Assembly (NCBI GenBank): GCA_029098185.1
Contig: JAQXNV010000017.1
Location: 66 to 64,065 of the forward strand
Origin: Oscillospiraceae bacterium
Lineage (GTDB): Bacteria > Bacillota > Clostridia > Oscillospirales > Acutalibacteraceae
Reading direction: 5' to 3'
DNA length: 64,000 bases
Shown here: piece by piece, positions 19,407 through 34,842 of the stretch
Numbering within the stretch: position 1 is the stretch's first letter
Layout: each line of letters opens with the position of its first letter
Notes under the pieces: model-generated
Seen by the model: the letters and a program-made list of their open reading frames with translations, nothing else
Database searches by the model: none
Told to the model about the DNA's origin: nothing
Made by a program: the position numbers and the translations under genes

Positions 19407-19472
19407 GAAACTTCTCCCATCCCGCCGGAAGTCCAATGGGATCTCCTGGCGCGTTTCCAGTCATTTTTCCTT

Positions 19473-20017: not shown

Positions 20018-20083
20018 TGCTTCATTACAGAGCGCCCTGCCGCTTTTGGAAAGCAGGAGACAGAGCGCCCTGCCGCTTTTGGA
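20018..20083. repeat. Perfect tandem duplication, 2 x 33 bp
   Basis: ACAGAGCGCCCTGCCGCTTTTGGAAAGCAGGAG occurs twice, head to tail. Each copy contains the hairpin CCTGC-N12-GCAGG. Confidence 0.95.
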
Positions 20084-20365
20084 AAGCAGGAGCAAAGCCG
20101 TCAAACACGGGCAGCAGACACCGCAAAATGGAGCAAGAAAGCCATCTGAAGGATTTATGCAAATTGCTGATGAAGGTTAAAAAATTTATAAATATTGCAC
20201 AAATAAAATCGACAGCAAAATATGAACAAATTGTAAAGTTTTCAAAAACTGGAAAAAACGGATCGATTTGTCATGGGTTTGTCCTGGGTTGTGCTCTTGC
20301 GTTCTCAGGGGCGGTCTGCTATAACTAATGCAAACATAAAAATGACGAAGGAGAGTTGTTGCTTT

Positions 20366-21835
20366 ATGAAATCTAATCGTGTACTGAAATCCATTCTTTG
20401 CGCAGCCCTGGCAGCTATGCTGACTGTAGGCGCAACCTCTGTCACCGCCTTTGCAGCAGAGGCAAACACTACGACGCAGAGCACTGTGGACGCTACCCAG
20501 AATGGAGACGGCGAAAGCGTAGAAGATCAGGTCAAGAATGAGTTTGAAGAATGCCTCAGTATGCCAGAAGCAAGAGTCGTTGCCGGTTTCAGCTTTAATC
20601 TGCCGGTATTTAGCAACTATAAGATCGAGGCGGCCAGCCCAGAAAAGGTCACCGGCGGCATGATCACCGTCACTGTGCCAAACGGCAATGACAGTGAAGA
20701 GCCTTACATGAACAATACGTATTTCATCAAGAGCGGTGATAAGGCCAGTTTCTATGAGGAGATCAAAAATTATAAGCAGTATAATTTGACCCGTCTGGAA
20801 GATGAAAAGCTGGAAAAGGACAACATCATCGCTGCTTGCACCAAGGGAACAGACGGCAAGATCCGTGCTGTCATGTGGGCTATTGAGGACGACGATTGCA
20901 AATATGGTTACAGCGTGATGGATCTGTCCGGTATGACCGAGGAACAAGCCATCAAGTTGATCAGACAGATCACTGCTTACAACGAGTTTAGCCATATCAA
21001 CGGCCAGCCCAACCTGATGCAGGCCGAGATCGAACCATTGTCCTGCCAGAACTTTGCCGGCGGCAGAGACGTCTTTGTGCCGGATGAGGACATCGTTGTC
21101 ACCTACAAGGGCAAGAAGCTGGTAAAAGATAAGGACTACTATGTTTTTTATCTTCGGAACAGCGAGATCGGCCAGGCAGTTCTGGGTATCCGCCCAACAG
21201 AGGACAGCGAATATCAGGGCTTTAACATTGCATCATTCCAGATCACCTCTCAGACGCCGGCTAATGTACAGCAGTCCAAGCAGCGTGCCACCTCTGTGCA
21301 GCTTGCCATTGACGCAGTTTACGGCGCAGACGGTTATGTGATCTTCAACACAGACGGCGAGATTCCCCAAAAGGTCGCCACCGCAACGACCCAGAACGGT
21401 GCCGCAACCATCTACAAGACCATCGACGGTCTGGAGCCAGGCAAGACCTATCATTATTTCGTCCAGTCCTTCACTACAGATGAGAACGGCAAAAACTGGT
21501 ACAGCGATGCAAGTGACGTCGTCGCAGCTTCCACAACAGATGTGACCATTCCGGCTGCTGTTAAGAATCTGAAGCAAGTAAAGCAGACAAAGACCTCCGC
21601 GCAGATCTCGTTCAGCAAGGTCAAGGGTGCAAACGGCTATTTCATTTATAACGCAAACGGCAAGAGAATTGCCACTGTCACCACACAAAATGGCGCCGCA
21701 ACACTGAAAAAGACCATTAGCGACCTGAAGGCGAACAAGTCCTACAAGCTGACTGTAAAGCCTTACACCACGGCCTCTAACGGCGAAAAGGTAACAGGCG
21801 CTGGCAAGACCATTACGGTTAAGACCACAAAATAA
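20366..21835 (+). CDS. Secreted protein with two C-terminal FN3-like repeats
   Basis: Signal peptide MKSNRVLKSILCAALAAMLTVGATSVTAFAAEA, RBS gaaggagag. There are two repeats of about 90 aa (..GADGYVIF...QNGAATIYKTIDGLEPGKTYHY.. and ..GANGYFIY...QNGAATLKKTISDLKANKSYKL..). Confidence 0.78.
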   Translation: MKSNRVLKSILCAALAAMLTVGATSVTAFAAEANTTTQSTVDATQNGDGESVEDQVKNEFEECLSMPEARVVAGFSFNLPVFSNYKIEAASPEKVTGGMITVTVPNGNDSEEPYMNNTYFIKSGDKASFYEEIKNYKQYNLTRLEDEKLEKDNIIAACTKGTDGKIRAVMWAIEDDDCKYGYSVMDLSGMTEEQAIKLIRQITAYNEFSHINGQPNLMQAEIEPLSCQNFAGGRDVFVPDEDIVVTYKGKKLVKDKDYYVFYLRNSEIGQAVLGIRPTEDSEYQGFNIASFQITSQTPANVQQSKQRATSVQLAIDAVYGADGYVIFNTDGEIPQKVATATTQNGAATIYKTIDGLEPGKTYHYFVQSFTTDENGKNWYSDASDVVAASTTDVTIPAAVKNLKQVKQTKTSAQISFSKVKGANGYFIYNANGKRIATVTTQNGAATLKKTISDLKANKSYKLTVKPYTTASNGEKVTGAGKTITVKTTK

Positions 21836-21899: not shown

Positions 21900-22000
21900 A
21901 ACAAAAATTTCCATCAGTTTTTGCTTTCCCTGGAAAAAGGAATGTGTTACAATGGAACTAGTTTCCATTGGAATTGTTCAAAAAAAGGGGGGCATCATCG

Positions 22001-23293
22001 TTGAATTTGTTGAAAGCGGTGAATATTTCCATCGAGCTGTGCGGCATCTCCTTGTGCATCATGGGGATCATAGCGGTGCTGATCGGCACAAAGATCGAGA
22101 AAAAAGACAGCCGTTATTTTATCTGTCTGTTTCTCTGTCTGCTCATTGATCTGCTGTCTAATATGAGCGGTCAAATTTTTCGAGGTGCTGCGGGAACAGT
22201 TGGATTTTATGCGGTGCGGATCTCCAATTTCTCAGAATTTTTCTTTGGCTATCTGCTGACCTTCTGCGTGACCTGGTATCTGCTTTATTGCATCGACCCC
22301 CAGTGGAAAAAGAAAGAACTGCGTGTCGGCATTGGCATTTTTTATGGCGGACAGCTCGGGCTCTTGGTTCTTTCCCAGTTCAACAAGATGTATTATTACA
22401 TAGACAGCAGCAACGTGTACCATCGGGGCGAGCTGTTCTGGCTGTCTCAGGCTGTCAGTATCTGCTCCTTTTTGCTGGATGCTGTCCTGCTTGTTTGGGA
22501 ACGCGCGTCTCTGTCCAAAAAACAAAAGCTGGCCTTTGGCAGCTATTTGCTGCTGCCCACAGCGGCATTGATCGGGCAGCTATTTTATTACGGACTGGTA
22601 CTGACGTTGATCGCATCTATTTTGGGCGCGTTTGTCATGTTTCTGTTCATCCTCAATGACCAGGTGGAGCGCTATTGCGCCAAGGAGCGGGAAAACACCA
22701 ATATGCAGACAGCCATCATGCTCAGTCAGATCCAGCCGCATTTTCTGTATAATGTGTTGAATACGATTTACTATCTGTGCGGGAAAGACCCGAAGGAAGC
22801 CCAAAATGTCGTGGCGAATTTTTCCGATTACCTGCGGGGCAACCTGGATTCCTTAAACTGTAAGGAGCCGGTTCCCTTTGCAACGGAGCTGGAACACGTT
22901 AAGAAATACCTTTCCCTGGAGGAAGCCCGATTCCGGGAGGAATTGCAGGTGGTTTACGATATTGAGGCCACCGGGTTTATGGTGCCCACATTGACGGTGC
23001 AGCCTCTAGTTGAAAACGCCGTGCGTTACGGCCTGGGGAAAAAACCGGGCGGCGGCACGGTGCGCATTGCCACACGGGAGGAGCCGGATCGTTATGTCAT
23101 CACCATTGATGATGACGGCGTAGGCTTTGACCCGGAACATTTGGAGTTTCATGACAATCGCAGCCATATCGGTATCTCCAACGTGCGCAGCCGCCTGGCC
23201 ACCATGTGCGGCGCATCGCTGGACATTCAAAGTGAGATCGGCCGCGGAACGACCGCAGTCATTACTGTACAAAAGAAGGAGGACCGCCTGTGA
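22001..23293 (+). CDS. Sensor histidine kinase, LytS/YehU-type (polytopic N-terminal sensor plus His_kinase plus HATPase)
   Basis: QIQPHFLYNVLNTIYYL (phospho-acceptor His box of the LytS family), PLVENAVRYG and a DDDGVGF ATPase. The start is ambiguous: TTG at 22001 after GGGGGG, or TTG at 21968. Confidence 0.85.
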   Translation: MNLLKAVNISIELCGISLCIMGIIAVLIGTKIEKKDSRYFICLFLCLLIDLLSNMSGQIFRGAAGTVGFYAVRISNFSEFFFGYLLTFCVTWYLLYCIDPQWKKKELRVGIGIFYGGQLGLLVLSQFNKMYYYIDSSNVYHRGELFWLSQAVSICSFLLDAVLLVWERASLSKKQKLAFGSYLLLPTAALIGQLFYYGLVLTLIASILGAFVMFLFILNDQVERYCAKERENTNMQTAIMLSQIQPHFLYNVLNTIYYLCGKDPKEAQNVVANFSDYLRGNLDSLNCKEPVPFATELEHVKKYLSLEEARFREELQVVYDIEATGFMVPTLTVQPLVENAVRYGLGKKPGGGTVRIATREEPDRYVITIDDDGVGFDPEHLEFHDNRSHIGISNVRSRLATMCGASLDIQSEIGRGTTAVITVQKKEDRL

Positions 23294-24081
23294 ACATTCT
23301 GGCAGTCGACGACGAAAAACTGGCGCTGGAGAATATGATGGAGGCCATCCGGGAAGTTGCGCCCAGGGCAACACTGGCAGGAGCCCGAGACGGGGAGCAG
23401 GCCTTGGCGCTTGCGGAAAAGACCCGGTTCGATCTTGCGTTTCTGGATATTGAAATGCGAGGGATCTCCGGACTGGAGCTGGCCAAGCGGCTAAAAGAGC
23501 GGAACCGGCGGGTCAATGTGATCTTTGCCACCGGCCACGATCAATATCCGCTGGATGCGTTTTCTCTGGCGGCCAGCGACTATCTCCTCAAGCCCATCAC
23601 ACCGGAAAAGGTGCGCCGTGCCATGGGAAACCTGCGGTTTCCGCTGCGCCCCACAGGGACCAAAAAGCTGCAGATCCATTGCTTTGGCAGCTTTGAGGTG
23701 TACGCTAACGGCGAGCCCCTGCTTTTTGGCCGGGCCAAGACAAAGGAGATGCTGGCCTATCTGGTGGACCGGAAAGGCAGTACCTGTTCCATGGGGGAAC
23801 TTTTGGCCGTGCTGTGGGAGGATAAGCCCAACAGCTCGTCCCAGCAGAGCAACCTGCGCAATCTGATCTCCGATCTGAAAAATACGCTGGCCAGTGTCGA
23901 TGCAGAGGATGTGATCCTGAAAGGGCGCAACGTTATCAGCATCCGGGAAAATATGGTGGACTGCGACTATTATGATTTTCTGAAAGGCGTTCCCTATGCG
24001 GTCCATCTGTACCAGGGGGCATACATGGAACAATATTCCTGGGCCGAGGAGACGCTGGCGTCTCTGCCGCTGGTGGAATAA
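23290..24081 (+). CDS. Response regulator: receiver domain plus SARP/OmpR-type winged-helix domain (RR1)
   Basis: Receiver residues (VDDE...DIEM...ATGH..K) are followed by LQIHCFGSFEVYANGEPLLFGRAKTKEMLAYLV...NLRNLISDLKNTL, typical of SARP-type wHTH domains. The GTG start overlaps the kinase stop (GTGA). Confidence 0.85.
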   Translation: MNILAVDDEKLALENMMEAIREVAPRATLAGARDGEQALALAEKTRFDLAFLDIEMRGISGLELAKRLKERNRRVNVIFATGHDQYPLDAFSLAASDYLLKPITPEKVRRAMGNLRFPLRPTGTKKLQIHCFGSFEVYANGEPLLFGRAKTKEMLAYLVDRKGSTCSMGELLAVLWEDKPNSSSQQSNLRNLISDLKNTLASVDAEDVILKGRNVISIRENMVDCDYYDFLKGVPYAVHLYQGAYMEQYSWAEETLASLPLVE

Positions 24082-24105
24082 ACGGGAGATCCTCCTAACG
24101 AAAAA

Positions 24106-24141
24106 CCGGAAGCCTCTATTCCTGCGGCCTCCGGCTTTTTT
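24106..24141 (+). terminator. Terminator of the kinase/RR1 operon
   Basis: CCGGAAGCC...GGCCTCCGG stem with one mismatch, followed by CTTTTTT. Confidence 0.65.
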
Positions 24142-24280
24142 GCTTGTCTGACGCTGCTCAAGAAATTGCCCATTTTTTGTAGGAGCGATGGAGGGGAAGG
24201 CTTTCTGTAGACGATTGGATGTCCGGCGATGATATTCCCCAAAAAGCGCATAGGTATCGGATTTTTCGGCGGTTTGCGCC

Positions 24281-24309
24281 TTGACCGGCACAGGAAAATA
24301 GATTATAAT
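24281..24309 (+). promoter_or_regulatory. Sigma-A type promoter of the partner-switch/export operon
   Basis: TTGACC (24281-86), a 17-nt spacer, then TATAAT (24304-09). Confidence 0.7.
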
Positions 24310-24366
24310 GAAAAGAAAATCAATTTGAAGTTGCGTTGGCAATGGAGAGCATTTGGAGGTTATCCC

Positions 24367-24663
24367 ATGACAATCGAAAAAAAGCAAAACGGAAACACTT
24401 TGGAGCTGAAGCTGACAGGTCGTCTGGATACGATGACGGCGCCGGAATTGGAAGCGGTTTTAAAAGAAACGATCGATGGAATGGAAAAGCTGGATCTCGA
24501 TTTCAGCGGACTGGAATATCTGTCCTCTGCAGGCCTTCGGGTATTGCTGACGGCGCAGAAGATCATGAATAAGCAGGGAGAAATGGTTATCCATAACGTC
24601 AACGACACCATCATGGAAGTGTTTGAAGTGACCGGATTTGTGGATATTTTGACCATTGCGTGA
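24367..24663 (+). CDS. STAS-domain anti-sigma-factor antagonist (SpoIIAA/RsbV-like)
   Basis: 98 aa. DFSGLEYLSSAGLRVLL contains the conserved phosphorylatable Ser context. RBS tggagg. Confidence 0.88.
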   Translation: MTIEKKQNGNTLELKLTGRLDTMTAPELEAVLKETIDGMEKLDLDFSGLEYLSSAGLRVLLTAQKIMNKQGEMVIHNVNDTIMEVFEVTGFVDILTIA

Positions 24664-24699
24664 TCCCATTTTGACAAAAGCCACGGAAGGGGTAACAGG

Positions 24700-27135
24700 G
24701 TGACGATTTTCATTTTAGCGGTCACAGCCGCCGTACCGATTCTGCTGTCTGCCGGCTTATTTTTGCTGGATAGACGAACACGGTTCGGTAAACTGCACTA
24801 CATAAAAAAGCAAATCATATACGGGCTCCTTTTTGGCGCACTGGCTGTGTGCGGCACAGAATTCGGTATCGATACCGGCGGCGCCATCATCAATGTGCGG
24901 GATGCTGCGCCCCTTTGTGCCGGCTTGTTTTTTGGGGCGCCATCGGGCGTCATTGCCGGAGTTATCGGCGGAGTGGAACGCTATTTGGCCGTTTTTTGGG
25001 GCGCGGGGGAATATACGCAGTTAGCCTGTTCCATCGCAACGGTGTTTGCCGGATGCTTTGGCGCTGCGCTGCGAAAATTCCTGTTTGACAACAAACGCGC
25101 GCCCTGGTATCACGCCATGACCATCGCGGCAGTCACAGAGATCCTGCACATGCTGCTGATCTTTTTGACCAATATGCACGACGTCAGCACAGCCTTCTCC
25201 TTTGTGCGCACCTGTGCGCTGACCATGATCCTGCTCAATACCGCATCGGTCACCGGCGCGGCGCTGGTCCTGTATTTTCTGGAGTCAGACCAGCGGCAGG
25301 ACCGTCACGGGCCGCTGCAGCTATCGCAAAAGTTTTCTATCTGGTTGATGTTCAGCGTGGTTGCGGCGTTTTTGGCGGCGACGACACTGTCCTTTGTCCT
25401 ACAGACGCAAATGTCGGAAAACAATGCCAATGAACTATTGCGGCTGAACATCGACGACGTGAAGGAGGACATCAACGACGCTTCAGACAAGAACCTGTTG
25501 ACCATTACGAGATCGGTTGCCGATGAAGTAGAATCTTTGACAAACGTCGACACACAAACGCTGGATACGCTGCGAAAAAAGTATGATATTGCCGAGATCA
25601 ATATCATCGACAAATGGGGCGTTATCCGCACGTCTACCAATCCGGACTTTATTTTCTATAATATGAACGGCGGTTCCCAGTCGTCAGAATTTTTACAACT
25701 GCTGGACGGAACGACGACAGAATTTGTGCAGGGCTACGGCCCTACGTCCTCAGACAGTAGCGTGCTGCGGAAATATGGCGCCGTTACCTTAAAGGATGGC
25801 GGATTTGTCCAGGTGGCCTACGATGCCAAGCGATTCCAAAAGGACATCGACGGCCAGGTCATCGGCATCACGAGAAACCGCCATGTGGGCGAGGGCGGAT
25901 TCATCCTCATCGCCAACGAATCGGGAGAGATCGTCAGTGACCGGAACCAGAACGAGGGCACTAGTCTGGAGACAGCCGGCATTCAGATCAAGGAAAACGC
26001 CATCCAGCAAGAGCAGCGGTTTGAAGCGGAGGTTTATGGGGAAAAGAGCTATTGTATGTATGTAAAGTCGGAGGGCTATTACATCATCTCGGTCCTGCCG
26101 CGGCAGGAGGCTGTTTTCTCCAGAGATGTTTCCTCTTATATTACGCTGTTTATGGAGATCGTCGTCTTTGGTCTGCTGTTCATGCTGGTATTCCTGCTCA
26201 TCAAGCATCTGATCCTGGACAATCTTCGCAAGGTGAACCATTCCCTGTCGGAGATCACCAACGGCAATTTGGATATTGTGGTAGATGTCCGCAGTAACCA
26301 GGAATTTGCAAAGCTGTCCGATGACATCAACGCCACGGTCACTACGCTCAAGCATTATATCGAAGCGGAGGCAGCCCGGATCGACAAGGAGCTGGAGTTT
26401 GCCAAATCCATTCAGCATTCGGCACTGCCCAGCGTGTTCCCACCTTATCCTAACCGGACAGAGTTCGACATTTACGCCACCATGGATACGGCCAAAGAGG
26501 TCGGCGGCGACTTCTATGATTTCTATCTGCTGGATCAGGACCATCTGGCGTTTCTCATTGCGGACGTTTCCGGTAAGGGCATTCCGGCGGCGCTGTTCAT
26601 GATGACGGCCAAAACGCTGATCAAGAGTCTCGCAGAGGCCGGAAACGCAGTCAACGATGTGTTTACGCTGGCCAATGAAAAGCTGTGCGAAAACAATGAA
26701 GCCGGGATGTTTGTAACGGCCTGGATGGGCATTTTGGATCTAAAGACCGGACTGGTAGAATTTGCTAACGCCGGCCACAATCCGCCGCTGATGCGAAAGA
26801 AGGGCGGCGAATTTACCTATCTGAAGAGCCGCGCCGGTTTTGTGCTGGCCGGTATGGAGGGCATCCACTACCGGAAAAACGAATTGCAACTGGAGCCGGG
26901 GGATGAGATCTATCTCTACACCGACGGCGTGACCGAAGCCACCGATCTCAACGAGGCCCTTTAGGGAGAGGAACGGCTGCAAAGCTTCCTCAATTCTATC
27001 GGGACGCCGGACGCAAAAACGCTGTGTGCAGGCGTCAAGGCAGATGTGGATCGGTTTGTGCGGACAGCGCCGCAGTTTGACGATATTACCATGGTTTCTC
27101 TGCAATATAAAGGGAACAAGGAGGAAGAAGAATGA
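24700..27135 (+). pseudogene. Membrane sensor PP2C phosphatase (5TM LytS-like N-domain, extracytoplasmic region, HAMP, SpoIIE/PP2C), interrupted by an in-frame TAG at 26962-26964
   Basis: PP2C motifs AKEVGGDFYDFY, ADVSGKGIPAALFM and YLYTDGVTEA precede the TAG. The same frame then continues GEERLQSFLN...APQFDDITMVSLQY (the family's C-terminal metal-binding Asp region). It ends in a TGA that overlaps the ATG of the next gene (ATGA at 27132-35). Confidence 0.8.
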
Positions 27136-27539
27136 AAAAGCTGACAGTAGACGCGATCAAAGAAAATATCGAAGTGGTCACCCAGTTTGTCGATGAGCAG
27201 TTGGAGGAATTCAATTGTTCCATGAAAGCGCAGATGCAGATCAATATCGCCATCGACGAGCTGTTTGGCAATATTGCCGCCTATGCGTACAATCCGGAAA
27301 TTGGACCGGCCACAGTCTGTGTTCAGGTAGTGGGGGAGCCGCTGTCGGTGGTGATCACCTTTATGGACCACGGCGTGCCTTTCGACCCGCTGCAGCAAAA
27401 ATCGCCAGACACGACCCTTTCTGCGGAGGAGCGGGAAATTGGCGGCCTGGGCATTTACATGGTCAAACAGAGCATGGACGATATTTCTTATGAATATAAA
27501 GATGGCAAAAACATTTTGACGATTCAGAAAACGATTTAA
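27132..27539 (+). CDS. RsbW/SpoIIAB-like anti-sigma-factor serine kinase (HATPase_c_2)
   Basis: 135 aa with N-box AIDELFGNIAAYAY and G-box EIGGLGIYMV. It is translationally coupled to the phosphatase frame. Confidence 0.85.
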   Translation: MKKLTVDAIKENIEVVTQFVDEQLEEFNCSMKAQMQINIAIDELFGNIAAYAYNPEIGPATVCVQVVGEPLSVVITFMDHGVPFDPLQQKSPDTTLSAEEREIGGLGIYMVKQSMDDISYEYKDGKNILTIQKTI

Positions 27540-27550
27540 GGGAGTGCGGT

Positions 27551-28024
27551 ATGGATCATAAAATTTTCAGAAAAAAGAGTCTTGAAAAGGTTTCCTCGCC
27601 AGAGCAGCTCAACGACTACGTCCGGGTGTCCAATCCCAGCGTTTGGATGATTATGGTGGGCGTAATCATCCTGCTCATCGGCGTTTGCGTGTGGGGGATC
27701 TTCGGCCGGCTGGATACCCAGATCAGCACCGTTGGCGTCTGCAAGGATGGGGTGCTGACCTGTTATGTGAAGGAGGAGAACATCTCCTCTGTAAAGGAAG
27801 GCATGACGCTGGAGGCCGACGGCCAGCAACTTAAGGTAGAGGGCATCAGCCGGGAAGCGAGCCAGGATACCAATGAGATGAGTGATTATACGCTTCATGT
27901 GGGCAACCTGCAAAAAGGAGAGTGGGTCTACCATGTGACGACGCCGGCTGACCTGGATGACGGCACTTACAACGTAAAGATCACGACAGAAAGTATTGCG
28001 CCGATGTCATTTGTGTTGAATTGA
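27551..28024 (+). CDS. Short HlyD-like membrane-fusion/secretion accessory protein (NHLM-system type)
   Basis: The N-terminus FRKKSLEKVSSPEQLNDYV plus a single TM matches the start of HlyD-type bacteriocin secretion proteins. Only about 100 aa of beta-rich periplasmic part follows, with no long coiled-coil hairpin. Confidence 0.6.
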   Translation: MDHKIFRKKSLEKVSSPEQLNDYVRVSNPSVWMIMVGVIILLIGVCVWGIFGRLDTQISTVGVCKDGVLTCYVKEENISSVKEGMTLEADGQQLKVEGISREASQDTNEMSDYTLHVGNLQKGEWVYHVTTPADLDDGTYNVKITTESIAPMSFVLN

Positions 28025-28034
28025 GGGACGCCCT

Positions 28035-30221
28035 ATGCAGAAGAAAAAGACGAAAATCAAACATCCTGTGCAGGGGGGCGTGGTGAAGGTGCCGGTCGTT
28101 ATGCAGATGGAGGCGCTGGAATGCGGCGCTGCATCGCTGGCGATGGTGATGGCCTACTATGACAAGTGGATCCCGCTGGAGCAGGTCCGTACCGACTGCG
28201 GCGTGTCGAGAGATGGTTCCAATGCGAGAAATATGCTCAAAGCTGCCAGAAGCTATGGGATGATCGCAAAGGGCTATCGGTTCGAGCCGGAAGAGCTGCG
28301 GGAAAAGGGGACGTTTCCCTGTATCATCCACTGGAACTTTAACCACTTTGTGGTGCTGGACGGGTTCCGGGGCAATAAAGCCTATCTCAATGACCCTGCC
28401 AGAGGCAACTATACGGTTTCTATGGAAACCTTTGACGAATCGTTTACCGGCATTTGCCTGATGATGGAGCCGGGGGACGATTTTGAACCGGGCGGCAAGC
28501 AGAAGAGCATCCTCAGCTTTGCCAAAAAGCGGTTGATCGGCACCGGAGCGGCAGTAGCTTTTGTGGTGCTCACCACCTGTATTTCATCGCTGATGGGCAT
28601 CATCAATCCGGCCTTCTCACGGATCTTTCTGGACCGGCTGCTCACGGGGCAAAACCCAGAATGGGTGATTCCCTTCTTCATCGCCCTAGGCGGCATGGGG
28701 ATTATCCAACTGGTGGTGGCGTGGATCCAGGCCGTGTACTCTCTGCGGATCAACGGCAAAATGTCTGTGGTGGGCAATACCAGCTTTATGTGGAAGGTCC
28801 TGCGCTTGCCCATGGAGTTTTTCTCCCAGCGCATGGCCGGTGACATCCAGCAGCGCCAGGGCACCAATGCTTCTATTGCGGAGGGACTGGTCAATACCTT
28901 TGCGCCGCTGGTGCTGGAAACCATCATGATGATCTTTTATCTGGTGGTCATGCTGCGGTATAGCTGGGTGCTGACGATGATCGGCCTGGTGGCTATCGTG
29001 GTCAACTTGATCGTTTCCAATATCATCTCCAAAAAGCGGATCAATATCACCCGTGTGCAGATGCGGGATTCCGGTAAGCTGGCCAGCGCCACCGTTGCGG
29101 GCATCGAGATGATCGAGACCATTAAGGCCAGCGGCGCCGAGAACGGTTACTTCGAAAGATGGTCCGGCTACCAGGCCAGCGTCAATACGCAGCAGGTCCG
29201 GTTTGCCCGGCTCAATCAGTATCTCGGCATGATCCCCACGTTGGTCTCGTCCCTGGCAGGCACCGCCGTGTTGATGATCGGCGTATACCTGACCATGCAG
29301 GGAGAGTTTACTGTCGGTATGATCGCCCAGTTCCAGGGCTTGCTCAGCTCCTTCACTGCCCCTGCCATGACGCTGATCAGCGCCGGACAGACGCTGCAGG
29401 AGATGCGCACCGAAATGGAACGGGTAGAGGATGTGATGGAATATCCCACAGACGTGAACTACGAAAGCGAAGAGGAAGAAAAAGACGCAGAATACAGTAA
29501 GCTGTCCGGCAATGTGGAGATGAAAAACGTCACCTTTGGCTATTCCCGCCTGGGTGAGCCGCTGATCAAAGATTTTAATCTGACGCTGAAAACCGGCAGC
29601 CGGGTGGCTTTTGTCGGCTCGTCGGGCTGCGGTAAATCGACGCTCTCTAAGCTGATCTCCGGCCTATACCAGCCCTGGAGCGGCGAGATCCTATTTGACG
29701 GCAAGCCCATCAAAGACATTGACCGCAGTGTGTTCCGGGGTTCTCTGGCCGTTGTGGATCAGGATATTATTTTGTTTGAGGATACCATCGCCAACAATAT
29801 CAAGATGTGGGATGACTCCATCGAGGACTTTGAGATGATCATGGCGGCCCGTGATGCGCAGATCCACGACGACATCATGCAGCGGGACGGCGGTTATCAG
29901 TATAAGCTGACTGAGGACGGCAAAGACTTTTCCGGCGGTCAGCGGCAGCGGATGGAGATCGCCCGGGTGCTGGCGCAGGATCCGACCATCATCATTTTGG
30001 ATGAGGCCACCAGCGCCTTGGACGCAAAGACAGAGTACGAGGTCGTCAAGGCCATCAAGGACCGGGGCATTACCTGTATCGTCGTTGCCCACCGGCTGTC
30101 CACCATTCGGGACTGTGACGAGATCATCGTACTGGATCACGGCAATGTAGTAGAGCGGGGTACCCATGACGAATTGTACGCTAAAGGCGGCGTTTACACC
30201 GAGCTGGTGTCCAATGAATAA
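28035..30221 (+). CDS. Bacteriocin-type ABC exporter with an N-terminal C39 peptidase domain (peptidase/permease/ATPase)
   Basis: C39 catalytic context QMEALECGAASLAMV, HFVVL, NDP. It has six TM helices, Walker A GSSGCGKST, signature FSGGQRQR and Walker B IIILDEATSALD. Confidence 0.92.
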   Translation: MQKKKTKIKHPVQGGVVKVPVVMQMEALECGAASLAMVMAYYDKWIPLEQVRTDCGVSRDGSNARNMLKAARSYGMIAKGYRFEPEELREKGTFPCIIHWNFNHFVVLDGFRGNKAYLNDPARGNYTVSMETFDESFTGICLMMEPGDDFEPGGKQKSILSFAKKRLIGTGAAVAFVVLTTCISSLMGIINPAFSRIFLDRLLTGQNPEWVIPFFIALGGMGIIQLVVAWIQAVYSLRINGKMSVVGNTSFMWKVLRLPMEFFSQRMAGDIQQRQGTNASIAEGLVNTFAPLVLETIMMIFYLVVMLRYSWVLTMIGLVAIVVNLIVSNIISKKRINITRVQMRDSGKLASATVAGIEMIETIKASGAENGYFERWSGYQASVNTQQVRFARLNQYLGMIPTLVSSLAGTAVLMIGVYLTMQGEFTVGMIAQFQGLLSSFTAPAMTLISAGQTLQEMRTEMERVEDVMEYPTDVNYESEEEEKDAEYSKLSGNVEMKNVTFGYSRLGEPLIKDFNLTLKTGSRVAFVGSSGCGKSTLSKLISGLYQPWSGEILFDGKPIKDIDRSVFRGSLAVVDQDIILFEDTIANNIKMWDDSIEDFEMIMAARDAQIHDDIMQRDGGYQYKLTEDGKDFSGGQRQRMEIARVLAQDPTIIILDEATSALDAKTEYEVVKAIKDRGITCIVVAHRLSTIRDCDEIIVLDHGNVVERGTHDELYAKGGVYTELVSNE

Positions 30222-30233
30222 GGAGGTGGAAAC

Positions 30234-32468
30234 ATGGGTTGGTTTGATGAACAGATAAAACAAAGAAAACAACACGACGACGATGTTTTCACAGATTCCT
30301 TTCTCAACATCGCCCGGTCTGTCGTCGGCAACAAGGCGGGCTCTCAGTTTCAGGATGACCAGAAGATTGCCAAGAGCACCTTTGACCAGATCTTAAAATA
30401 TTACCATGTCAAGACCCGGGAAGTGCCGGAGAGCATCAAAAACCGGGACGATCAATTGGAATATCTCCTGCGGCCCTACGGCATCATGCGGCGGAACGTC
30501 AATTTAGACGATGGCTGGTATAAGGACGCCATCGGCGCTATGCTGGGCGTGCGCAAAAGCGACGGGACCGTTGTGGCGCTGATCCCCTCGGGACTGTCGG
30601 GCTATAGCTACATTGACCCGGATACAGGCAAACGGATGCGGGTCAATAAGAAACGGCAAAAGCTGTTTGAAAAGGAAGCTGTGGCGTTTTATAAGCCGTT
30701 CCCGCTGAAGAAGCTGGGTATCCCGGCACTGCTAAAGTATATCGTCGAAACGCTGTCGATCTCCGACTTTGTGCTGTTGGGCATCGTAACGCTGGCCGTT
30801 ACCCTTATCGGTATGCTGACGCCAAAGCTGAACAGCCTGCTGTTTTCCGACGTCATCAATTCGGGCAGTATGCGGCTATTGATCTCCATCACCATCTTTA
30901 TGGTGTGCGTGACCATTACTCAGCTTTTGATCTCGGCGGCAAAATCTTTGGTAACGGCCCGGATCAATACGAAGATGAGTATTTCCGTTGAGGGCGCAAC
31001 GATGATGCGGGTGCTGTCGCTGCCGGCGGATTTCTTTAAACAGTACAGCGCCGGTGAATTGTCCTCCCGTGCCTCCAGCATCAATACGCTGTGTAATATG
31101 CTGGTGTCCACCATTTTATCCTCCGGCCTGAGCTCTCTGTTTTCTCTGCTGTATATTACGCAGATCTTCGCTTACGCACCATCATTGGTCATCCCAGCGC
31201 TGGTGATCATCGGGATCACATTGGCCTTTTCTCTGGCATCCACGCTGATGCAGATGAAGATCAGTAAGCGCCAGATGGAGCTGTCCTCTAAGGAGAGCGG
31301 CATGACGTATGCGCTGCTCACCGGTATCCAGAAAATCAAGCTGGCCGGCGCGGAAAAACGTGCTTTTGCCCGCTGGGGCAACCTGTACGCCAAGGAGGCG
31401 GAGCTATCCTATCGTCCGCCGGTTTTCCTGCGGATCAACAGCGTGATCTCCACCGGTATTTCTTTGGCCGGCAGCTTTGTCATGTACTTTATGGCCGTTC
31501 AGTCGGGGATCTCCATTGCCGACTACTACGCCTTTAACGCCGCTTACGGCATGGTGTCGGGCGCGTTTTTGTCGGTGCAGTCCATTGCACTGACCGTGGC
31601 CCGCATCAAACCGGTTTTGGAGATGGTGAAGCCGCTGCTGGAAACGGTCCCGGAAATCTCCGAGGGCAAGCAGGTGATCACACGGCTCAGCGGCGGCATC
31701 GAGCTGAACAATATCTCCTTCCGCTACCAGGAAAATATGCCGCTGGTCATCGACGATCTTTCGCTGAAGATCCGGCCTGGCCAATATGTGGCCATCGTCG
31801 GTGCAACGGGCTGCGGCAAGTCCACGCTGATGCGTTTGATGCTGGGTTTTGAAAAGCCCCAAAAGGGCGCCATCTTTTACGATGGAAAGGACCTGAGCAA
31901 TATCGACCTTAAATCTCTGCGGAAAAATATCGGCACCGTGATGCAAAACGGCAAGCTGTTCCAGGGCGACATCTATTCCAATATCGTCATTTCTGCGCCG
32001 CGCCTTACGATGGACGAAGCGTGGGAGGCGGCGGAGCTGGCCGGCATTGCCGAGGATATTCGCCAGATGCCCATGGAGATGCACACCGTGATCTCTGAGG
32101 GGCAGGGCGGTATTTCCGGCGGTCAGCGGCAGCGCTTGATGATCGCCCGTGCCGTGGCGCCAAAGCCGAAGATCCTGATGTTTGACGAGGCCACCAGCGC
32201 CCTGGATAACCTGACCCAGAAGAAGATCTCCGAATCGCTGGCCAATCTCAAATGCACACGGATCGTCATTGCCCACCGGTTGTCCACCATCCAGCAGTGT
32301 GACCGGATCATCGTGCTGGATAAGGGCAAGATCATTGAGGACGGCAAGTATGATGAGCTGATCGCCCAGAATGGATTCTTTGCGGAATTGGTCGCAAGAC
32401 AACGGCTGGATCTGGGCCAGGAAGCGGTGACAGAAGCGCCAAAGCAGGCGGCAAAAGCGACTTGTTGA
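30234..32468 (+). CDS. Second ABC exporter subunit with a degenerate, Cys-free C39-like N-domain (permease/ATPase)
   Basis: Walker A GATGCGKST, signature ISGGQRQR and Walker B ILMFDEATSALD. The first 165 aa or so contain no Cys, and TVVALIP replaces HFVVL. Confidence 0.9.
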   Translation: MGWFDEQIKQRKQHDDDVFTDSFLNIARSVVGNKAGSQFQDDQKIAKSTFDQILKYYHVKTREVPESIKNRDDQLEYLLRPYGIMRRNVNLDDGWYKDAIGAMLGVRKSDGTVVALIPSGLSGYSYIDPDTGKRMRVNKKRQKLFEKEAVAFYKPFPLKKLGIPALLKYIVETLSISDFVLLGIVTLAVTLIGMLTPKLNSLLFSDVINSGSMRLLISITIFMVCVTITQLLISAAKSLVTARINTKMSISVEGATMMRVLSLPADFFKQYSAGELSSRASSINTLCNMLVSTILSSGLSSLFSLLYITQIFAYAPSLVIPALVIIGITLAFSLASTLMQMKISKRQMELSSKESGMTYALLTGIQKIKLAGAEKRAFARWGNLYAKEAELSYRPPVFLRINSVISTGISLAGSFVMYFMAVQSGISIADYYAFNAAYGMVSGAFLSVQSIALTVARIKPVLEMVKPLLETVPEISEGKQVITRLSGGIELNNISFRYQENMPLVIDDLSLKIRPGQYVAIVGATGCGKSTLMRLMLGFEKPQKGAIFYDGKDLSNIDLKSLRKNIGTVMQNGKLFQGDIYSNIVISAPRLTMDEAWEAAELAGIAEDIRQMPMEMHTVISEGQGGISGGQRQRLMIARAVAPKPKILMFDEATSALDNLTQKKISESLANLKCTRIVIAHRLSTIQQCDRIIVLDKGKIIEDGKYDELIAQNGFFAELVARQRLDLGQEAVTEAPKQAAKATC

Positions 32469-32506
32469 CCCATTGTGTTATCGGAAGAAAGGACAGGTGA
32501 GATGGG

Positions 32507-33403
32507 ATGAGATCCAAAAGGGCGCACAGGGATGCCAAACATTGGGGGAAGAGGTCCCGCAAAAAAACGGCAGTGCTGCTGCTTTGCTGTATCTGTCTGT
32601 CCGCATTCTGGCTGTCTGGCTGCGGCACCAAAGATATTACCGGGGAAATTGATCTTGACCGGGTTTATGAAGCCAATAAGACAAGCAATCTGCTGCAAAA
32701 CCATCGCAGTATTCGGCAGACGGTAGGGTCGGAGGATTTTACGGTCTACATTGATCGGGAGCGGTATTTCTATGAGCTCGGCGATGATTACCGGCAATTG
32801 GTCGGCGATGATTTTTCCTTCGTTTACTATGACGGCAAATTTTCCGGCGTGCTCTATGCAGACAGCGGAAAATACCGTGAGACCTATACAAGCATTTTTC
32901 TGACAGACAGCTTCCGGGAGGAAACACTGGTCAGCGCCACGGATGACGGTACACAGATCCATCTCAAGACCCAGTATGACGCAAAGCAGGATGAACCAGA
33001 TTTGGGATTATCCAAAGGCGATCACTGTGACTACGTTTATGTGCTGGACAGCAAGACGTATGAGCTGATTGAGGGTAGGCAGACGCTCACAGACGCTGAC
33101 GGCAAGATGACGGTGGACTATCGCTCGAAAATCACTTATGATACCCCGTTGCCCAAAGAGGCAGCGGAGATGGAGGAGCGCTCCAAGCCGGACACAGACC
33201 TGCGTACGTTGACGGTCGTGCTGGACCCGAATACGAAAAAGGAAAAGGTATATTCTCGAACCGTGCGCAAGGGAGACTACTTCAGCGTTGTCATTCCCGA
33301 CGGTTATACGATGTATGAGGATGAAGATTGTACGATCCCCTATGAAGAGGATCTGGATGACAACGAGCATCATCTCTTACTCTTTGCAAAACCATCTGCA
33401 TAG
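32507..33403 (+). CDS. Lipoprotein of unknown function
   Basis: A basic N-terminus is followed by LLLCCICLSAFWLSGC (lipobox LSGC). I recognise no family. Confidence 0.7.
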   Translation: MRSKRAHRDAKHWGKRSRKKTAVLLLCCICLSAFWLSGCGTKDITGEIDLDRVYEANKTSNLLQNHRSIRQTVGSEDFTVYIDRERYFYELGDDYRQLVGDDFSFVYYDGKFSGVLYADSGKYRETYTSIFLTDSFREETLVSATDDGTQIHLKTQYDAKQDEPDLGLSKGDHCDYVYVLDSKTYELIEGRQTLTDADGKMTVDYRSKITYDTPLPKEAAEMEERSKPDTDLRTLTVVLDPNTKKEKVYSRTVRKGDYFSVVIPDGYTMYEDEDCTIPYEEDLDDNEHHLLLFAKPSA

Positions 33404-33414
33404 CCAGAATAAAG

Positions 33415-33463
33415 AGCAGCGAAAGATCACGGCAATTTGCGGTGAGAAAATCGCTGCTTTTTT
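33415..33463 (+). terminator. Terminator at the end of the export operon
   Basis: AGCAGCGA...TCGCTGCT stem with a structured loop, followed by TTTTTT. Confidence 0.65.
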
Positions 33464-33526
33464 GCTGTGTGGCCATAAAAAAGAAAAAATTTTAAAATTT
33501 TTTTGTTTTTAGCCCATTTTATTGCG

Positions 33527-33564
33527 ATTTTGTTGCAGTTTTGTTGCACTTCGGGGTGTAGAAT
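33527..33564 (+). promoter_or_regulatory. Promoter of the GG-leader gene, with two direct TTTTGTTGCA repeats over the -35 region
   Basis: TTTTGTTGCA occurs at 33528-37 and 33539-48 (11-bp period). TG plus TAGAAT follows at 33557-64. Confidence 0.55.
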
Positions 33565-33618
33565 AAACATCATAAGGGAAAGTATGATGAGACATGAAAT
33601 AGAATGGAGTGAATGGCT

Positions 33619-33930
33619 ATGGCAGAAAAGGACACAGCGCTATGGAAAAATGAATTGGAAGAATCAGAACTGGACACGATTTCCGGTGGTACTACAGAGG
33701 AAGTGCGGGGAAATCTGTTCCATTTGCAGGATTCTGTTCTGGTAGATACCTGGTCGGGCAAGCAGGAACCGGCAACGATCGTTGGCGTATCCTATCGCAT
33801 CATTGGAGGCCAGCGGAAGATCACTTATGCGGTGCAGTATGATGTGGATAACGTGATCGAGGAAAACATTTTTGAAGATGCCTTAAAGCGAAATCCAAAC
33901 AAAAAGCATGACCGAGCATTACAGCAATGA
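33619..33930 (+). CDS. Double-glycine-leader precursor (24-aa leader plus 79-aa hydrophilic Cys-free core)
   Basis: The leader MAEKDTALWKNELEESELDTISGG fits the LSxxELxxIxGG consensus. GGAG lies 9 nt upstream of the ATG at 33619; the ATG at 33613 is an alternative. The predicted cleavage is after nt 33690. Confidence 0.7.
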   Translation: MAEKDTALWKNELEESELDTISGGTTEEVRGNLFHLQDSVLVDTWSGKQEPATIVGVSYRIIGGQRKITYAVQYDVDNVIEENIFEDALKRNPNKKHDRALQQ

Positions 33931-33975
33931 TCGCAAGGCAAAACGTGATGATTTCCAAGAAAGGAGGAAGGCAGC

Positions 33976-34803
33976 ATGAAGATTTTGATCGCTGATGACG
34001 AACGACTTTCTTTGGCGCATCTGGAGGAGACAGTGGAAAAAGCGTATCCCGACGCTTTTGTCAAGGGGTTCCGCGATCCAGAGGATCTGCTTTCCTATGC
34101 CGGAGAAAAGGGGTGTGACATCGCCCTGCTGGATATTGAAATGCGGTCTATGAACGGCGTGGAAGCTGCCCAGCGGTTACAGGCGTTACAGCCAAAGGTG
34201 AACATTATTTTTGTCACGGCCCACAGCGGCTATACGGGAGACGCCATGCGGATGCACGCCAGCGGATACCTGCTCAAGCCGGTGACGCTGGAAGCAGTGC
34301 GCAGGGAGCTATGTGACCTTCGTTATCCGGTCACACCGGGAAAACCCACCGTTCTGCAGATCCGCTGCTTTGGCAATTTTGCGGTATTTTGTCCCGACGG
34401 AACACCCGTCGCCTTTCGGCGCTCCAAAGCAAAGGAAGCGCTGGCGTATCTTGTCCATCTTGGCGGCGCATCCTGTACCGTAAAGGAACTGGCGGCTGTG
34501 TTGTTTGAAGATCGCCCCTATGACAAGCGGGCACAGGGATATATTCAGAAGATCATCTCCTCCATGATGGCGACGCTGAAAGCAGTCGGTGCAGAGGAAG
34601 CGATTCTCAAGTGTTACAACAGTCTGGCGTTAAATCGGGAAGTGGTAGACTGCGATCTTTATGATTGTCTGGAGCGAGAGGACGAGGAGACGATCCGCAC
34701 TCTGCCCTATATGACCCAGTATTCCTGGGGAGAGGGGACTTCCGCCCGGTTAAAAGAAGGGGAAACGCCGACAAAAGATGAGCCGCAAGGCCCTTCGACA
34801 TAA
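33976..34803 (+). CDS. Response regulator, receiver plus SARP/OmpR-type winged helix, paralog of RR1 (RR2)
   Basis: It is collinear with RR1: DIEMRSMNGVE, IIFVTAHSGY, ASGYLLKPVT, LQIRCFGNFAVFCPDG...SKAKEALAYLVHLGG. RBS aaaggagga. There is no terminator between the GG-leader gene and this gene. Confidence 0.85.
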   Translation: MKILIADDERLSLAHLEETVEKAYPDAFVKGFRDPEDLLSYAGEKGCDIALLDIEMRSMNGVEAAQRLQALQPKVNIIFVTAHSGYTGDAMRMHASGYLLKPVTLEAVRRELCDLRYPVTPGKPTVLQIRCFGNFAVFCPDGTPVAFRRSKAKEALAYLVHLGGASCTVKELAAVLFEDRPYDKRAQGYIQKIISSMMATLKAVGAEEAILKCYNSLALNREVVDCDLYDCLEREDEETIRTLPYMTQYSWGEGTSARLKEGETPTKDEPQGPST

Positions 34804-34807
34804 TGGA

Positions 34808-34836
34808 AAACCTCCCAAAACGGGAGGCTTTTTTTG
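34808..34836. terminator. Bidirectional terminator between RR2 and the LysR gene
   Basis: CCTCCC-aaaac-GGGAGG followed by a T-tract. Confidence 0.8.
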
Positions 34837-34842
34837 TGGTGG

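Follow-up and report, generated by a model that had tools for sequence, protein, structure and literature searches.

What does a partner switch control when the genes that follow it encode a peptide exporter and no sigma factor? This question is raised by a region (positions 21968-34838, + strand) of the metagenome-assembled genome of an Oscillospiraceae bacterium, GCA_029098185.1. The window analyzed here is a stretch of 64,000 nt from contig JAQXNV010000017.1 (positions 66-64,065, forward strand), and all coordinates below are window positions. Eleven + strand genes are present in the region, in agreement with an earlier sequence-only reading whose coordinates match our map of open reading frames (ORFs). 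Six of them are at the center of this study: genes for a STAS anti-sigma-antagonist-type protein, a membrane PP2C phosphatase and an RsbW/SpoIIAB-like kinase, and, behind them, genes for a mini HlyD-like adaptor and two ATP-binding cassette (ABC) proteins, ABC1 and ABC2. Here, we found that the region belongs to a widespread group of double-glycine peptide export loci in gut Clostridia and has been remodelled locally, and that the conserved core of these loci is one operon made up of the six genes. Both the exporter type and the domain families of the switch are known; the novelty lies in a partner switch dedicated to a family of LahT-type exporters.

The size of the family was estimated from homologues of the 157-aa adaptor, which fell into 1612 protein clusters, with relatives in at least 546 species genomes. 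We collected 80 neighbourhoods of related loci from different species (L-numbers below denote the fetched contigs or loci), whose flanks were of unequal length and, in 26 of the 80, full. Recurrent neighbours were detected by crude ORF clustering followed by family checks, and domains were assigned with Pfam and NCBIfam profiles. Oscillospiraceae, Lachnospiraceae, Ruminococcus, Acutalibacteraceae, Erysipelotrichaceae and other groups are covered. The order adaptor gene, ABC1, ABC2 was observed in all 80 loci where the contig reached far enough, and identity to the window was 64-82% for ABC1 and 56-79% for ABC2.

Co-occurrence of the STAS-PP2C-kinase genes with the export trio across genomes, which had been set beforehand as the key check, was found: at least one orthologous STAS, RsbW-like or PP2C gene lay within the fetched flanks of 49 of the 80 loci. 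When only loci with full flanks were considered, 17 of 26 held at least one switch gene and 11 held all three. STAS orthologues were located by the exporter in 35 loci (46-72% identity), RsbW-like kinase orthologues in 33 (35-72%) and orthologues of the PP2C catalytic domain in 34; across bacterial families, the switch orthologues were mostly 45-77% identical to their counterparts in the window. The arrangement of these genes varied considerably. The full trio was located upstream, as in the window, in L004, L007, L017, L022, L048, L053, L057 and L070, for example; in 12 loci STAS alone preceded the adaptor gene, at a distance of about 15 nt, and in 15 the kinase gene lay directly upstream of it; in other loci the trio was downstream of the exporter, either co-directional or inverted. 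Persistence of the coupling through so many rearrangements argues for a functional link rather than chance juxtaposition. The coupling is conserved and not a one-off, and the genes often share the same operon. In the literature on partner switching or STAS proteins with bacteriocin or ABC export, no description of such coupling was found, and the suggestion that the architecture had not been described before is so far in line with that literature.

Two other proteins were observed next to the switch or in its place. A stand-alone REC-like protein of about 119 aa occupies the STAS/kinase slot directly upstream of the adaptor gene in L032 (3687-4049), L061, L067, L076 and L078; its Response_reg score (29.6 bits) is just below the cut-off, and S-N-N stands in place of the N-terminal acidic pair. 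An alkyl sulfatase of about 690 aa, either secreted or of the lipoprotein type (MBL fold, Alkyl_sulf_dimr, Alkyl_sulf_C), lies beside partner-switch genes in nine loci (L026, L029, L057, L069, L077, L075, L079, L010 and L038), often between STAS and the exporter genes.

Judging from profile matches, the exporter is of the known NHLM/N11P, LahT-type double-glycine kind, as had been recognized from the sequence; both ABC proteins scored above the curated cut-offs of TIGR03796 and TIGR03797 (Table 1). ABC1 is predicted to be a LahT orthologue with an active C39 peptidase: its peptidase domain is 73% identical to LahT150 (PDB 6mpz; 103/142 residues, E = 4.7e-72), and the C39 Cys and His align. The N-terminus of ABC2 gave no C39 signal by sequence (Pfam; hhalign against the C39 domain of ABC1, probability 1.6%). 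However, an AlphaFold2 (AF2) model of its first 180 residues, confident over residues 85-155, had the C39-like domain of HlyB (3zua) as the top Foldseek match (E = 1.1e-4), with ComA, LahT150 and PCAT1 also among the matches. No Cys or His of this domain was conserved in the alignment. On the basis of the model, the ABC2 N-terminus is a degenerate C39-like domain, so that the earlier label 'C39-like' is supported by structure and not by sequence. For the adaptor, the match to TIGR03794, the HlyD-like family of about 420 aa, was 34.5 bits against a cut-off of 156.2 and was limited to residues 13-64 (the N-terminal 52 aa), which places the protein outside that family. Its AF2 model (predicted local distance difference test score 73.7) contains a beta-barrel weakly resembling MacA, BesA and EmrA by Foldseek (E = 0.015-0.05), which agrees with its description as mini HlyD-like.

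Among the related loci, Nif11-leader precursors with Cys-rich cores were found in 33 (77 copies; TIGR03798 above cut-off, for example 39.7 vs 32.3 bits in L008), a radical-SAM/SPASM maturase of 465 aa in 27, and an extracytoplasmic function (ECF) sigma factor, preceded by a translationally coupled small protein, in 19. Further recurrent neighbours were MATE and GH3 proteins, the alkyl sulfatase, TetR and a divergent AgrC-like kinase with a LytTR regulator. Searches of the 64-kb window (tblastn and hidden Markov models) revealed no Nif11 precursor, radical-SAM maturase, ECF sigma factor or small partner of the latter; nor were adjacent NHLP (TIGR03793) or Nif11-type (TIGR03798) precursors present in the 64 kb, the one double-glycine (GG) leader ORF of the window fitting neither model. 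The claim that sigma factor and maturase are missing is right for the window but cannot be extended to the system, as relatives usually carry precursors, the radical-SAM enzyme and the ECF sigma factor.

Several features of these related loci deserve mention. The small protein coupled to the ECF sigma factor (59-78 aa; L005:17302-17490, L007:17764-17943, L024:14930-15136, L048:14966-15202 and others) is conserved over an N-terminal part of about 48 aa, up to an invariant V-x-A-A-G, and then has a hypervariable tail of 10-20 aa, a leader-plus-short-core layout; it could be the precursor of a pheromone or an anti-sigma factor, exported in either case, the latter in the manner of Bordetella BtrA. 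In L051 (16414-19738) and L054, 8-9 paralogous precursors are arrayed in tandem downstream of the radical-SAM gene; their leaders are long and Nif11-like, their cores short, amphipathic and poor in Cys (for example, GGGVVRKGASYVADKAEKFWEWFW), and in appearance they are closer to unmodified class II bacteriocins than to substrates of a radical-SAM enzyme. Clostridia-type copies of the exporter occur in bins labelled Prevotella, Bacteroides, Bacteroidales or Spirochaetales (L012, L039; protein hits P0213 and P0240), and large serine recombinases lie beside several Lachnospiraceae loci (for example, L020:18644-20341), which points either to errors in binning or to a cassette that has spread horizontally.

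Is the switch of the window itself intact? The start of the STAS gene was placed at ATG 24367, since an earlier start would put the promoter inside the ORF; the phospho-site Ser lies in LSSAGL and is kept in orthologues. The kinase, though above its Pfam cut-off, scored below the RsbW and SpoIIAB equivalog cut-offs (NF003144, 40.4 vs 145, 1.8e-10; TIGR01925, 28.8 vs 135). The window has the STAS protein and the HATPase_c_2 kinase expected of a partner-switching module, but not an intact PP2C. An in-frame TAG at 26962-26964, overlooked in the earlier reading of the locus, interrupts the phosphatase gene, whose frame past this codon stays open to a TGA at 27133-27135 that overlaps the kinase start. 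The SpoIIE match spans profile positions 2-142 of 192 before the TAG, which cuts off the last 56 residues, among them the FDDITMV motif, the source of a metal-binding Asp in PPM phosphatases; the phosphatase domain is not intact in the window. By contrast, a sister contig (L001, a 1525-nt Logan contig from another sample, 99.7% identical) has TAT (Tyr) at this codon, a frame without interruption over this segment and an intact domain. In the assembly, the phosphatase of the window is truncated and probably inactive, unless the base is an assembly error. Recoding of the TAG (pyrrolysine or suppression) was considered and rejected, since the sister strain has Tyr there and no other sign of recoding was seen.

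The features of the region are listed in Table 1. Most calls of the sequence-only reading were confirmed here: profile searches agreed with its domain assignments for the histidine kinase, first response regulator (RR1), STAS, PP2C, RsbW-like and exporter genes, all three terminators of the region fold well, and the TTGACC-17-TATAAT promoter that it had placed at 24281-24309 is the top match in the 14 kb scanned (21.5-35.5 kb), 58 nt upstream of the STAS ATG. The intergenic spacings that it gave for the seven-gene operon (36, -4, 11, 10, 12 and 38 nt) agree with the coordinates, with the reservation that the -4 ATGA overlap needs read-through of the PP2C stop. The lipoprotein that ends the operon matched no Pfam or NCBIfam family, and among the 80 loci its homologues were found only in L004 and L011, at cluster ends. 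A compositional island was rejected, as the GC content (0.48-0.55) is not distinct from that of the flanks. Outside the region, a perfect 33-nt tandem duplication (ACAGAGCGCCCTGCCGCTTTTGGAAAGCAGGAG x2, 20027-20092) is located in the intergenic space upstream of a gene for a secreted fn3-domain protein (20273-21835), and a 509-aa ORF (17907-19436, - strand) just upstream of the region has an XRE-type helix-turn-helix-like N-terminus, no Pfam family and no counterpart in the related loci.

Table 1. Features of the region, with window coordinates and the evidence for each
Feature	Position	Strand	Evidence or details
Sensor histidine kinase, LytS/YehU class; multi-transmembrane N-terminus, His_kinase, HATPase_c	21968..23293	+	Pfam (His_kinase PF06580)
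RR1, REC plus putative SARP-type (AfsR/EmbR-like) winged helix	23290..24081	+	REC 8e-23; Trans_reg_C 3.5e-4
Intrinsic terminator after RR1	24099..24142	+	RNA fold -23.6 kcal/mol, z -2.9, then U-run
Sigma-70-type promoter of the seven-gene operon, TTGACC-17-TATAAT	24281..24309	+	Near-consensus, 11/12 match
STAS anti-sigma-antagonist-type protein, 98 aa; phosphorylatable Ser in LEYLSSAGLRVL	24367..24663	+	PF01740 2e-15; TIGR00377 76.1 bits vs cut-off 53.45
Membrane sensor phosphatase PP2C; 5TMR_LYT, weak dCache, HAMP, PP2C/SpoIIE; interrupted by a premature stop	24700..27135	+	Pfam
In-frame TAG in the PP2C gene, Tyr755 to stop	26962..26964	+	Reading frame (DLNEAL-stop-GEERL)
RsbW/SpoIIAB-like serine kinase of 135 aa, with N-box, G1 and G2 motifs	27132..27539	+	PF13581 1.6e-19, 70.6 bits vs cut-off 27.4
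Mini HlyD-like adaptor, 157 aa; conserved cytoplasmic N-terminus, one transmembrane helix, small extracytoplasmic beta-barrel	27551..28024	+	Profile and AF2
ABC1, peptidase-containing ABC transporter; C39 Cys in ECGAASL, His in NHFVVL	28035..30221	+	TIGR03796 964.1 bits vs 853.3
ABC2, ABC permease/ATPase; predicted degenerate N-terminal C39-like domain	30234..32468	+	TIGR03797 742.7 bits vs 709.4
Lipoprotein, 298 aa, lipobox LSGC; last gene of the operon	32507..33403	+	ORF and lipobox
Strong intrinsic terminator after the lipoprotein gene	33411..33462	+	-27.7 kcal/mol, z -6.3; also picked up in the terminator scan
Tandem direct repeat TTTGTTGCA x2, 11-bp period (33529-33548), 10 nt before a -10-like TAGAAT (33559-33564)	33529..33564	+	Exact copies
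Predicted orphan precursor; 24-26-aa double-glycine leader plus 79-aa core	33613/33619..33930	+	Leader L-12, E-8, L-7, I-4, GG
RR2, putative REC-SARP paralogue of RR1	33976..34803	+	Pfam REC; 44% identical to RR1 over full length
Terminator closing the cargo-RR2 operon	34811..34827	+	Terminator scan and folding

What might the exporter of the window carry? The candidate is the GG ORF, whose leader reads L-E-E-S-E-L-D-T-I-S-G-G and is canonical at positions -12, -8, -7, -4, -2 and -1; it is the sole small ORF with a canonical GG leader in the window. Its 79-aa core is hydrophilic, acidic and Cys-free (isoelectric point 5.6, grand average of hydropathy -0.66). A word-indexed search of 5.8e9 proteins returned the ORF itself alone, and HMMER against 1.84e9 representatives returned the ORF and two low-complexity repeat proteins that were judged spurious. 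Pairing of the exporter with short-leader, protein-sized cargo was seen elsewhere too (cluster c67 in L075 and L079), and export of the 79-aa product by the exporter of the window is plausible by analogy.

The genes for the histidine kinase and the two response regulators belong to the variable part of the region. The histidine kinase gene overlaps the RR1 gene by 4 nt. The Trans_reg_C match of RR1 is weak (21 bits vs a cut-off of 26.2), its C-terminal half matching AfsR (8hvr, 2e-4) and EmbR (2fez, 2.6e-4), and the C-terminal half of the second response regulator, RR2, had no Pfam match. The 45-nt gap between the GG ORF and RR2 contains no terminator, as had been stated, and from this gap RR2 is predicted to be co-transcribed with the precursor. 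As to a separate promoter for the GG ORF, the one proposed earlier matches the consensus at just 9/12, and TAGAAT behind the tandem repeat is a better candidate. A tandem 11-bp repeat upstream of a -10 element is the layout of a SARP box; by analogy, 33529-33564 is a candidate site for a SARP-type activator together with the promoter of the cargo operon, and the layout suggests binding by RR1 or RR2. TTTGTTGCA as a regulon-wide motif was rejected, since its count in the window (23) is that expected by chance (22 ± 5) and the exact tandem pair alone is notable; an automated repeat search of the window did not report the pair. Neither the histidine kinase nor RR1 nor RR2 was found in any of the 80 related loci, in which the two-component systems are AgrC-like with LytTR; the three are a local addition and are unlikely to be the output of the conserved switch. 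Class II bacteriocin loci under three-component regulation, such as plnABCD, combine a peptide that has a GG leader, a histidine kinase and a pair of paralogous response regulators with export by a peptidase-containing ABC transporter and an accessory protein. Counterparts of all of these lie in the window, where the transporter is the C39 ABC exporter. In contrast with those loci, its regulators are putatively REC-SARP and not LytTR, its kinase is of the LytS class and not AgrC-like, and the 79-aa product is far longer than a pheromone.

Comparison with known systems helps to place the exporter and the switch. NHLM/N11P was defined by Haft et al. (2010; PMC2887384), who paired TIGR03796, TIGR03797 and an HlyD-like protein with precursors of the NHLP or Nif11 type. 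LahT150 is a crystallised, substrate-tolerant double-glycine protease from a lanthipeptide operon of Lachnospiraceae C6A11 with nine Nif11-type precursors; it requires just the last 13 leader residues and accepts diverse cores (PMC6363468). The window shares with these systems the two ABC proteins and the peptidase, and related loci share the Nif11-leader precursors, whereas the window has a 157-aa adaptor instead of an HlyD-like protein of about 420 aa and has neither an NHLP/Nif11 precursor nor a maturase. Neither paper reports a partner-switch module or a C39-like domain on the second ABC protein (PMC2887384, PMC6363468), and the LahT paper names neither anti-sigma proteins nor a heterodimer (PMC6363468). 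Another case of protein-sized GG-leader cargo is the Faecalibacterium MAM locus, with a peptidase-containing ABC transporter, an HlyD-like gene and a nearby cluster that its authors call sporulation (PMC8836110, PMC12184118). It differs in having a single such transporter, and MAM is not similar to the GG ORF of the window. We did not accept this locus as a known homologue, since the text on it does not identify the 'sporulation' ORFs as STAS, PP2C and kinase; it may show the same association and serves as a lead only.

With regard to the switch, the Bacillus modules RsbV-RsbW-SigB (with RsbU/RsbP) and SpoIIAA-SpoIIAB-SigF (with SpoIIE) have the same three domain families, a phosphorylatable STAS Ser and the kinase motifs. 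They differ from the window, which has no sigma gene, the order STAS-PP2C-kinase followed by exporter genes, and a 5TMR_LYT/Cache/HAMP membrane sensor on the phosphatase. In Bordetella, BtrU (PP2C), BtrW (kinase), BtrV (STAS), the ECF sigma factor BtrS and BtrA, an anti-sigma factor that is secreted, control type III secretion, BtrU/W/V by an unexplained and apparently non-sigma mechanism (PMC7498569). There too the genes of a STAS/kinase/PP2C trio accompany those of a secretion machine, the trio being required for secretion, and relatives of the window locus have an ECF sigma factor with a small partner in their neighbourhood; however, the Bordetella machine is a Gram-negative type III injectosome and ours a Gram-positive ABC exporter known here from its genes, with orthology limited to shared domains. 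Finally, MlaB is a STAS protein that uses its phospho-site face to bind the ABC ATPase MlaF and to regulate it (PMC7367683), the conserved phospho-site Ser/Thr facing the ATPase in MlaFB. A small STAS protein in an ABC transporter operon is likewise what the 12 related loci with STAS alone before the exporter genes have. MlaB, on the other hand, has no known kinase or phosphatase and serves a lipid importer-type ABC, whereas the window has a cognate kinase and phosphatase and a hypothesised contact with the ABC protein.

Considered as a whole, the region is best explained, tentatively and at somewhat less than even confidence, as a remodelled export locus with a dedicated, co-inherited switch that gates the exporter. 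Co-inheritance of switch and exporter is observed, whereas the mechanism is what we infer from it. ABC1, ABC2 and the mini adaptor would most likely form a heterodimeric exporter, by comparison with LahT, PCAT1 and HlyB, which would cut the leader after Gly-Gly and send the cargo out; the cargo here may be the orphan 79-aa protein instead of the Nif11 precursors and radical-SAM maturase of relatives. RR1 and/or RR2, under the LytS-class kinase, would probably activate the cargo-RR2 operon through the tandem repeat. The membrane PP2C would detect an envelope or extracellular cue and dephosphorylate the phosphorylated STAS protein; free STAS would then take up the kinase and shift the state of the other partner of the kinase or of STAS. 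This other partner may be the export machine itself, through the ABC nucleotide-binding domains, the C39-like domain or the adaptor N-terminus, so that export would be gated after translation. In the window strain, the stop at Tyr755 drops the last metal-binding motif of PP2C, which would presumably keep STAS in its phosphorylated form and fix the switch in a single state.

Direct gating of the exporter by the switch is possible rather than probable, and it is slightly favoured over a distant sigma factor. An exporter-directed output is preferred because the kinase gene is followed by adaptor and ABC genes and in none of its 33 loci by a sigma gene; because the presence of the ECF sigma factor does not depend on that of the switch (the sigma factor occurs without a switch gene in eight loci, and switch genes without a sigma factor in many) and this factor has a small partner of its own; because the REC-like protein fills the same upstream slot in five loci; and because MlaB-MlaF and BtrU/W/V, the nearest analogues, offer precedents. 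The specific form in which unphosphorylated STAS, or the kinase that it releases, docks on the nucleotide-binding or C39-like domains and turns export on or off by cue is doubtful. The non-sigma output put forward in the sequence-only reading is consistent with the absence of sigma genes from the window and from behind the kinase in every locus, but we infer it and do not read it from the sequence, because relatives carry precursors, a maturase and an ECF sigma factor.

Several points weigh against gating of the exporter by the switch. No switch gene was found in the fetched flank of 31 of the 80 loci, and the slot upstream of the exporter is occupied elsewhere by TetR (7 loci) or an ECF sigma factor (1 locus), which a transcriptional role fits equally well. 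RsbW-type kinases classically bind sigma factors, and the sigma search covered 64 kb of the genome. Neighbourhood reveals co-inheritance and not a physical target, so that the protein contacts are putative. The truncated phosphatase means that the copy in the window may not switch at all, although, in a genome assembled from a metagenome, the TAG could also be a mistake of assembly or consensus calling. For the cargo ORF no homologue was found in either protein collection, and its expression and export are predicted; the tandem repeat is a single instance.

The alternative that survives best is a classical partner switch with a transcriptional output, which we regard as rather unlikely. The kinase would then be the anti-sigma factor of a sigma factor encoded elsewhere, either SigB/SigF-like or the ECF factor of the exporter family, which would transcribe cargo, maturase or exporter genes, and the switch would adjoin the exporter as regulators stay by their regulon. 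This would agree with the STAS protein passing the anti-sigma-antagonist model, with RsbW and SpoIIAB being the best named matches of the kinase, with the ECF sigma factor of 19 related loci, with the TetR or sigma genes in the upstream slot elsewhere and with the 64-kb extent of the sigma search. However, no sigma-like ORF was found anywhere in the window, and the lack of a sigma gene behind the kinase, the uncorrelated presence of ECF sigma factor and switch, and the separate, translationally coupled partner of that factor all argue against it. Moreover, ECF sigma factors are not the usual partners of RsbW-type kinases.

It is less probable still, and on balance improbable, that the region is a decaying remnant from which Nif11 precursors, maturase and sigma factor were lost, with a phosphatase pseudogene, a chance or dying GG ORF and no working circuit. 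The premature stop, the missing genes and the orphan ORF are what decay would produce; against it, the STAS, kinase, adaptor, ABC1, ABC2 and lipoprotein genes are intact and tightly spaced, both ABC proteins exceed curated equivalog cut-offs, and PP2C is intact in the sister strain. The GG leader, moreover, is canonical and the only one of its kind among small ORFs of the window, and the L075 and L079 loci (cluster c67) also pair the exporter with short-leader, protein-like cargo. Quite improbable is the absence of any functional link, switch and exporter merely sharing a horizontally spreading cassette. Mobility is suggested by the 71-82% identity of ABC1 across bacterial families, by the few loci binned to Bacteroidota and by the serine recombinases flanking several loci; yet hitch-hiking would not explain an association that outlasts rearrangement (upstream, downstream, inverted, STAS alone, kinase alone) with operon-tight gaps. 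Signalling by the switch to the winged-helix regulators RR1 and RR2, the cross-talk once suggested, has next to no probability, for although they lie within the same 13-kb region, the switch is conserved without RR1, RR2 or the histidine kinase, which all 80 loci lack, any two-component system there being AgrC-like with a LytTR regulator.

Most peptide natural products of the Nif11 and NHLP types are processed by LahT-type exporters, which are widespread in gut Clostridia. The timing of export, by which unfinished peptides are kept inside the cell, is an open question (PMC6363468), and a dedicated phospho-switch whose genes accompany those of the exporter in hundreds of species offers a concrete, testable candidate for such control. 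The window itself is of smaller value, since with its truncated phosphatase and orphan cargo it draws attention to the family but is not a good model of it; better test organisms are cultured carriers, such as Murimonas intestini DSM 26524 (L011). An exporter-linked switch would add a well-defined case to the poorly understood partner switches without sigma factors. If gating of the exporter is true, this would be the first ABC transporter under a complete STAS phospho-switch, and with it would come the missing kinase and phosphatase logic that for MlaB-MlaF was no more than a hypothesis. The unexplained control of type III secretion by BtrUVW would then also have a Gram-positive counterpart, in hundreds of species of gut Clostridia.

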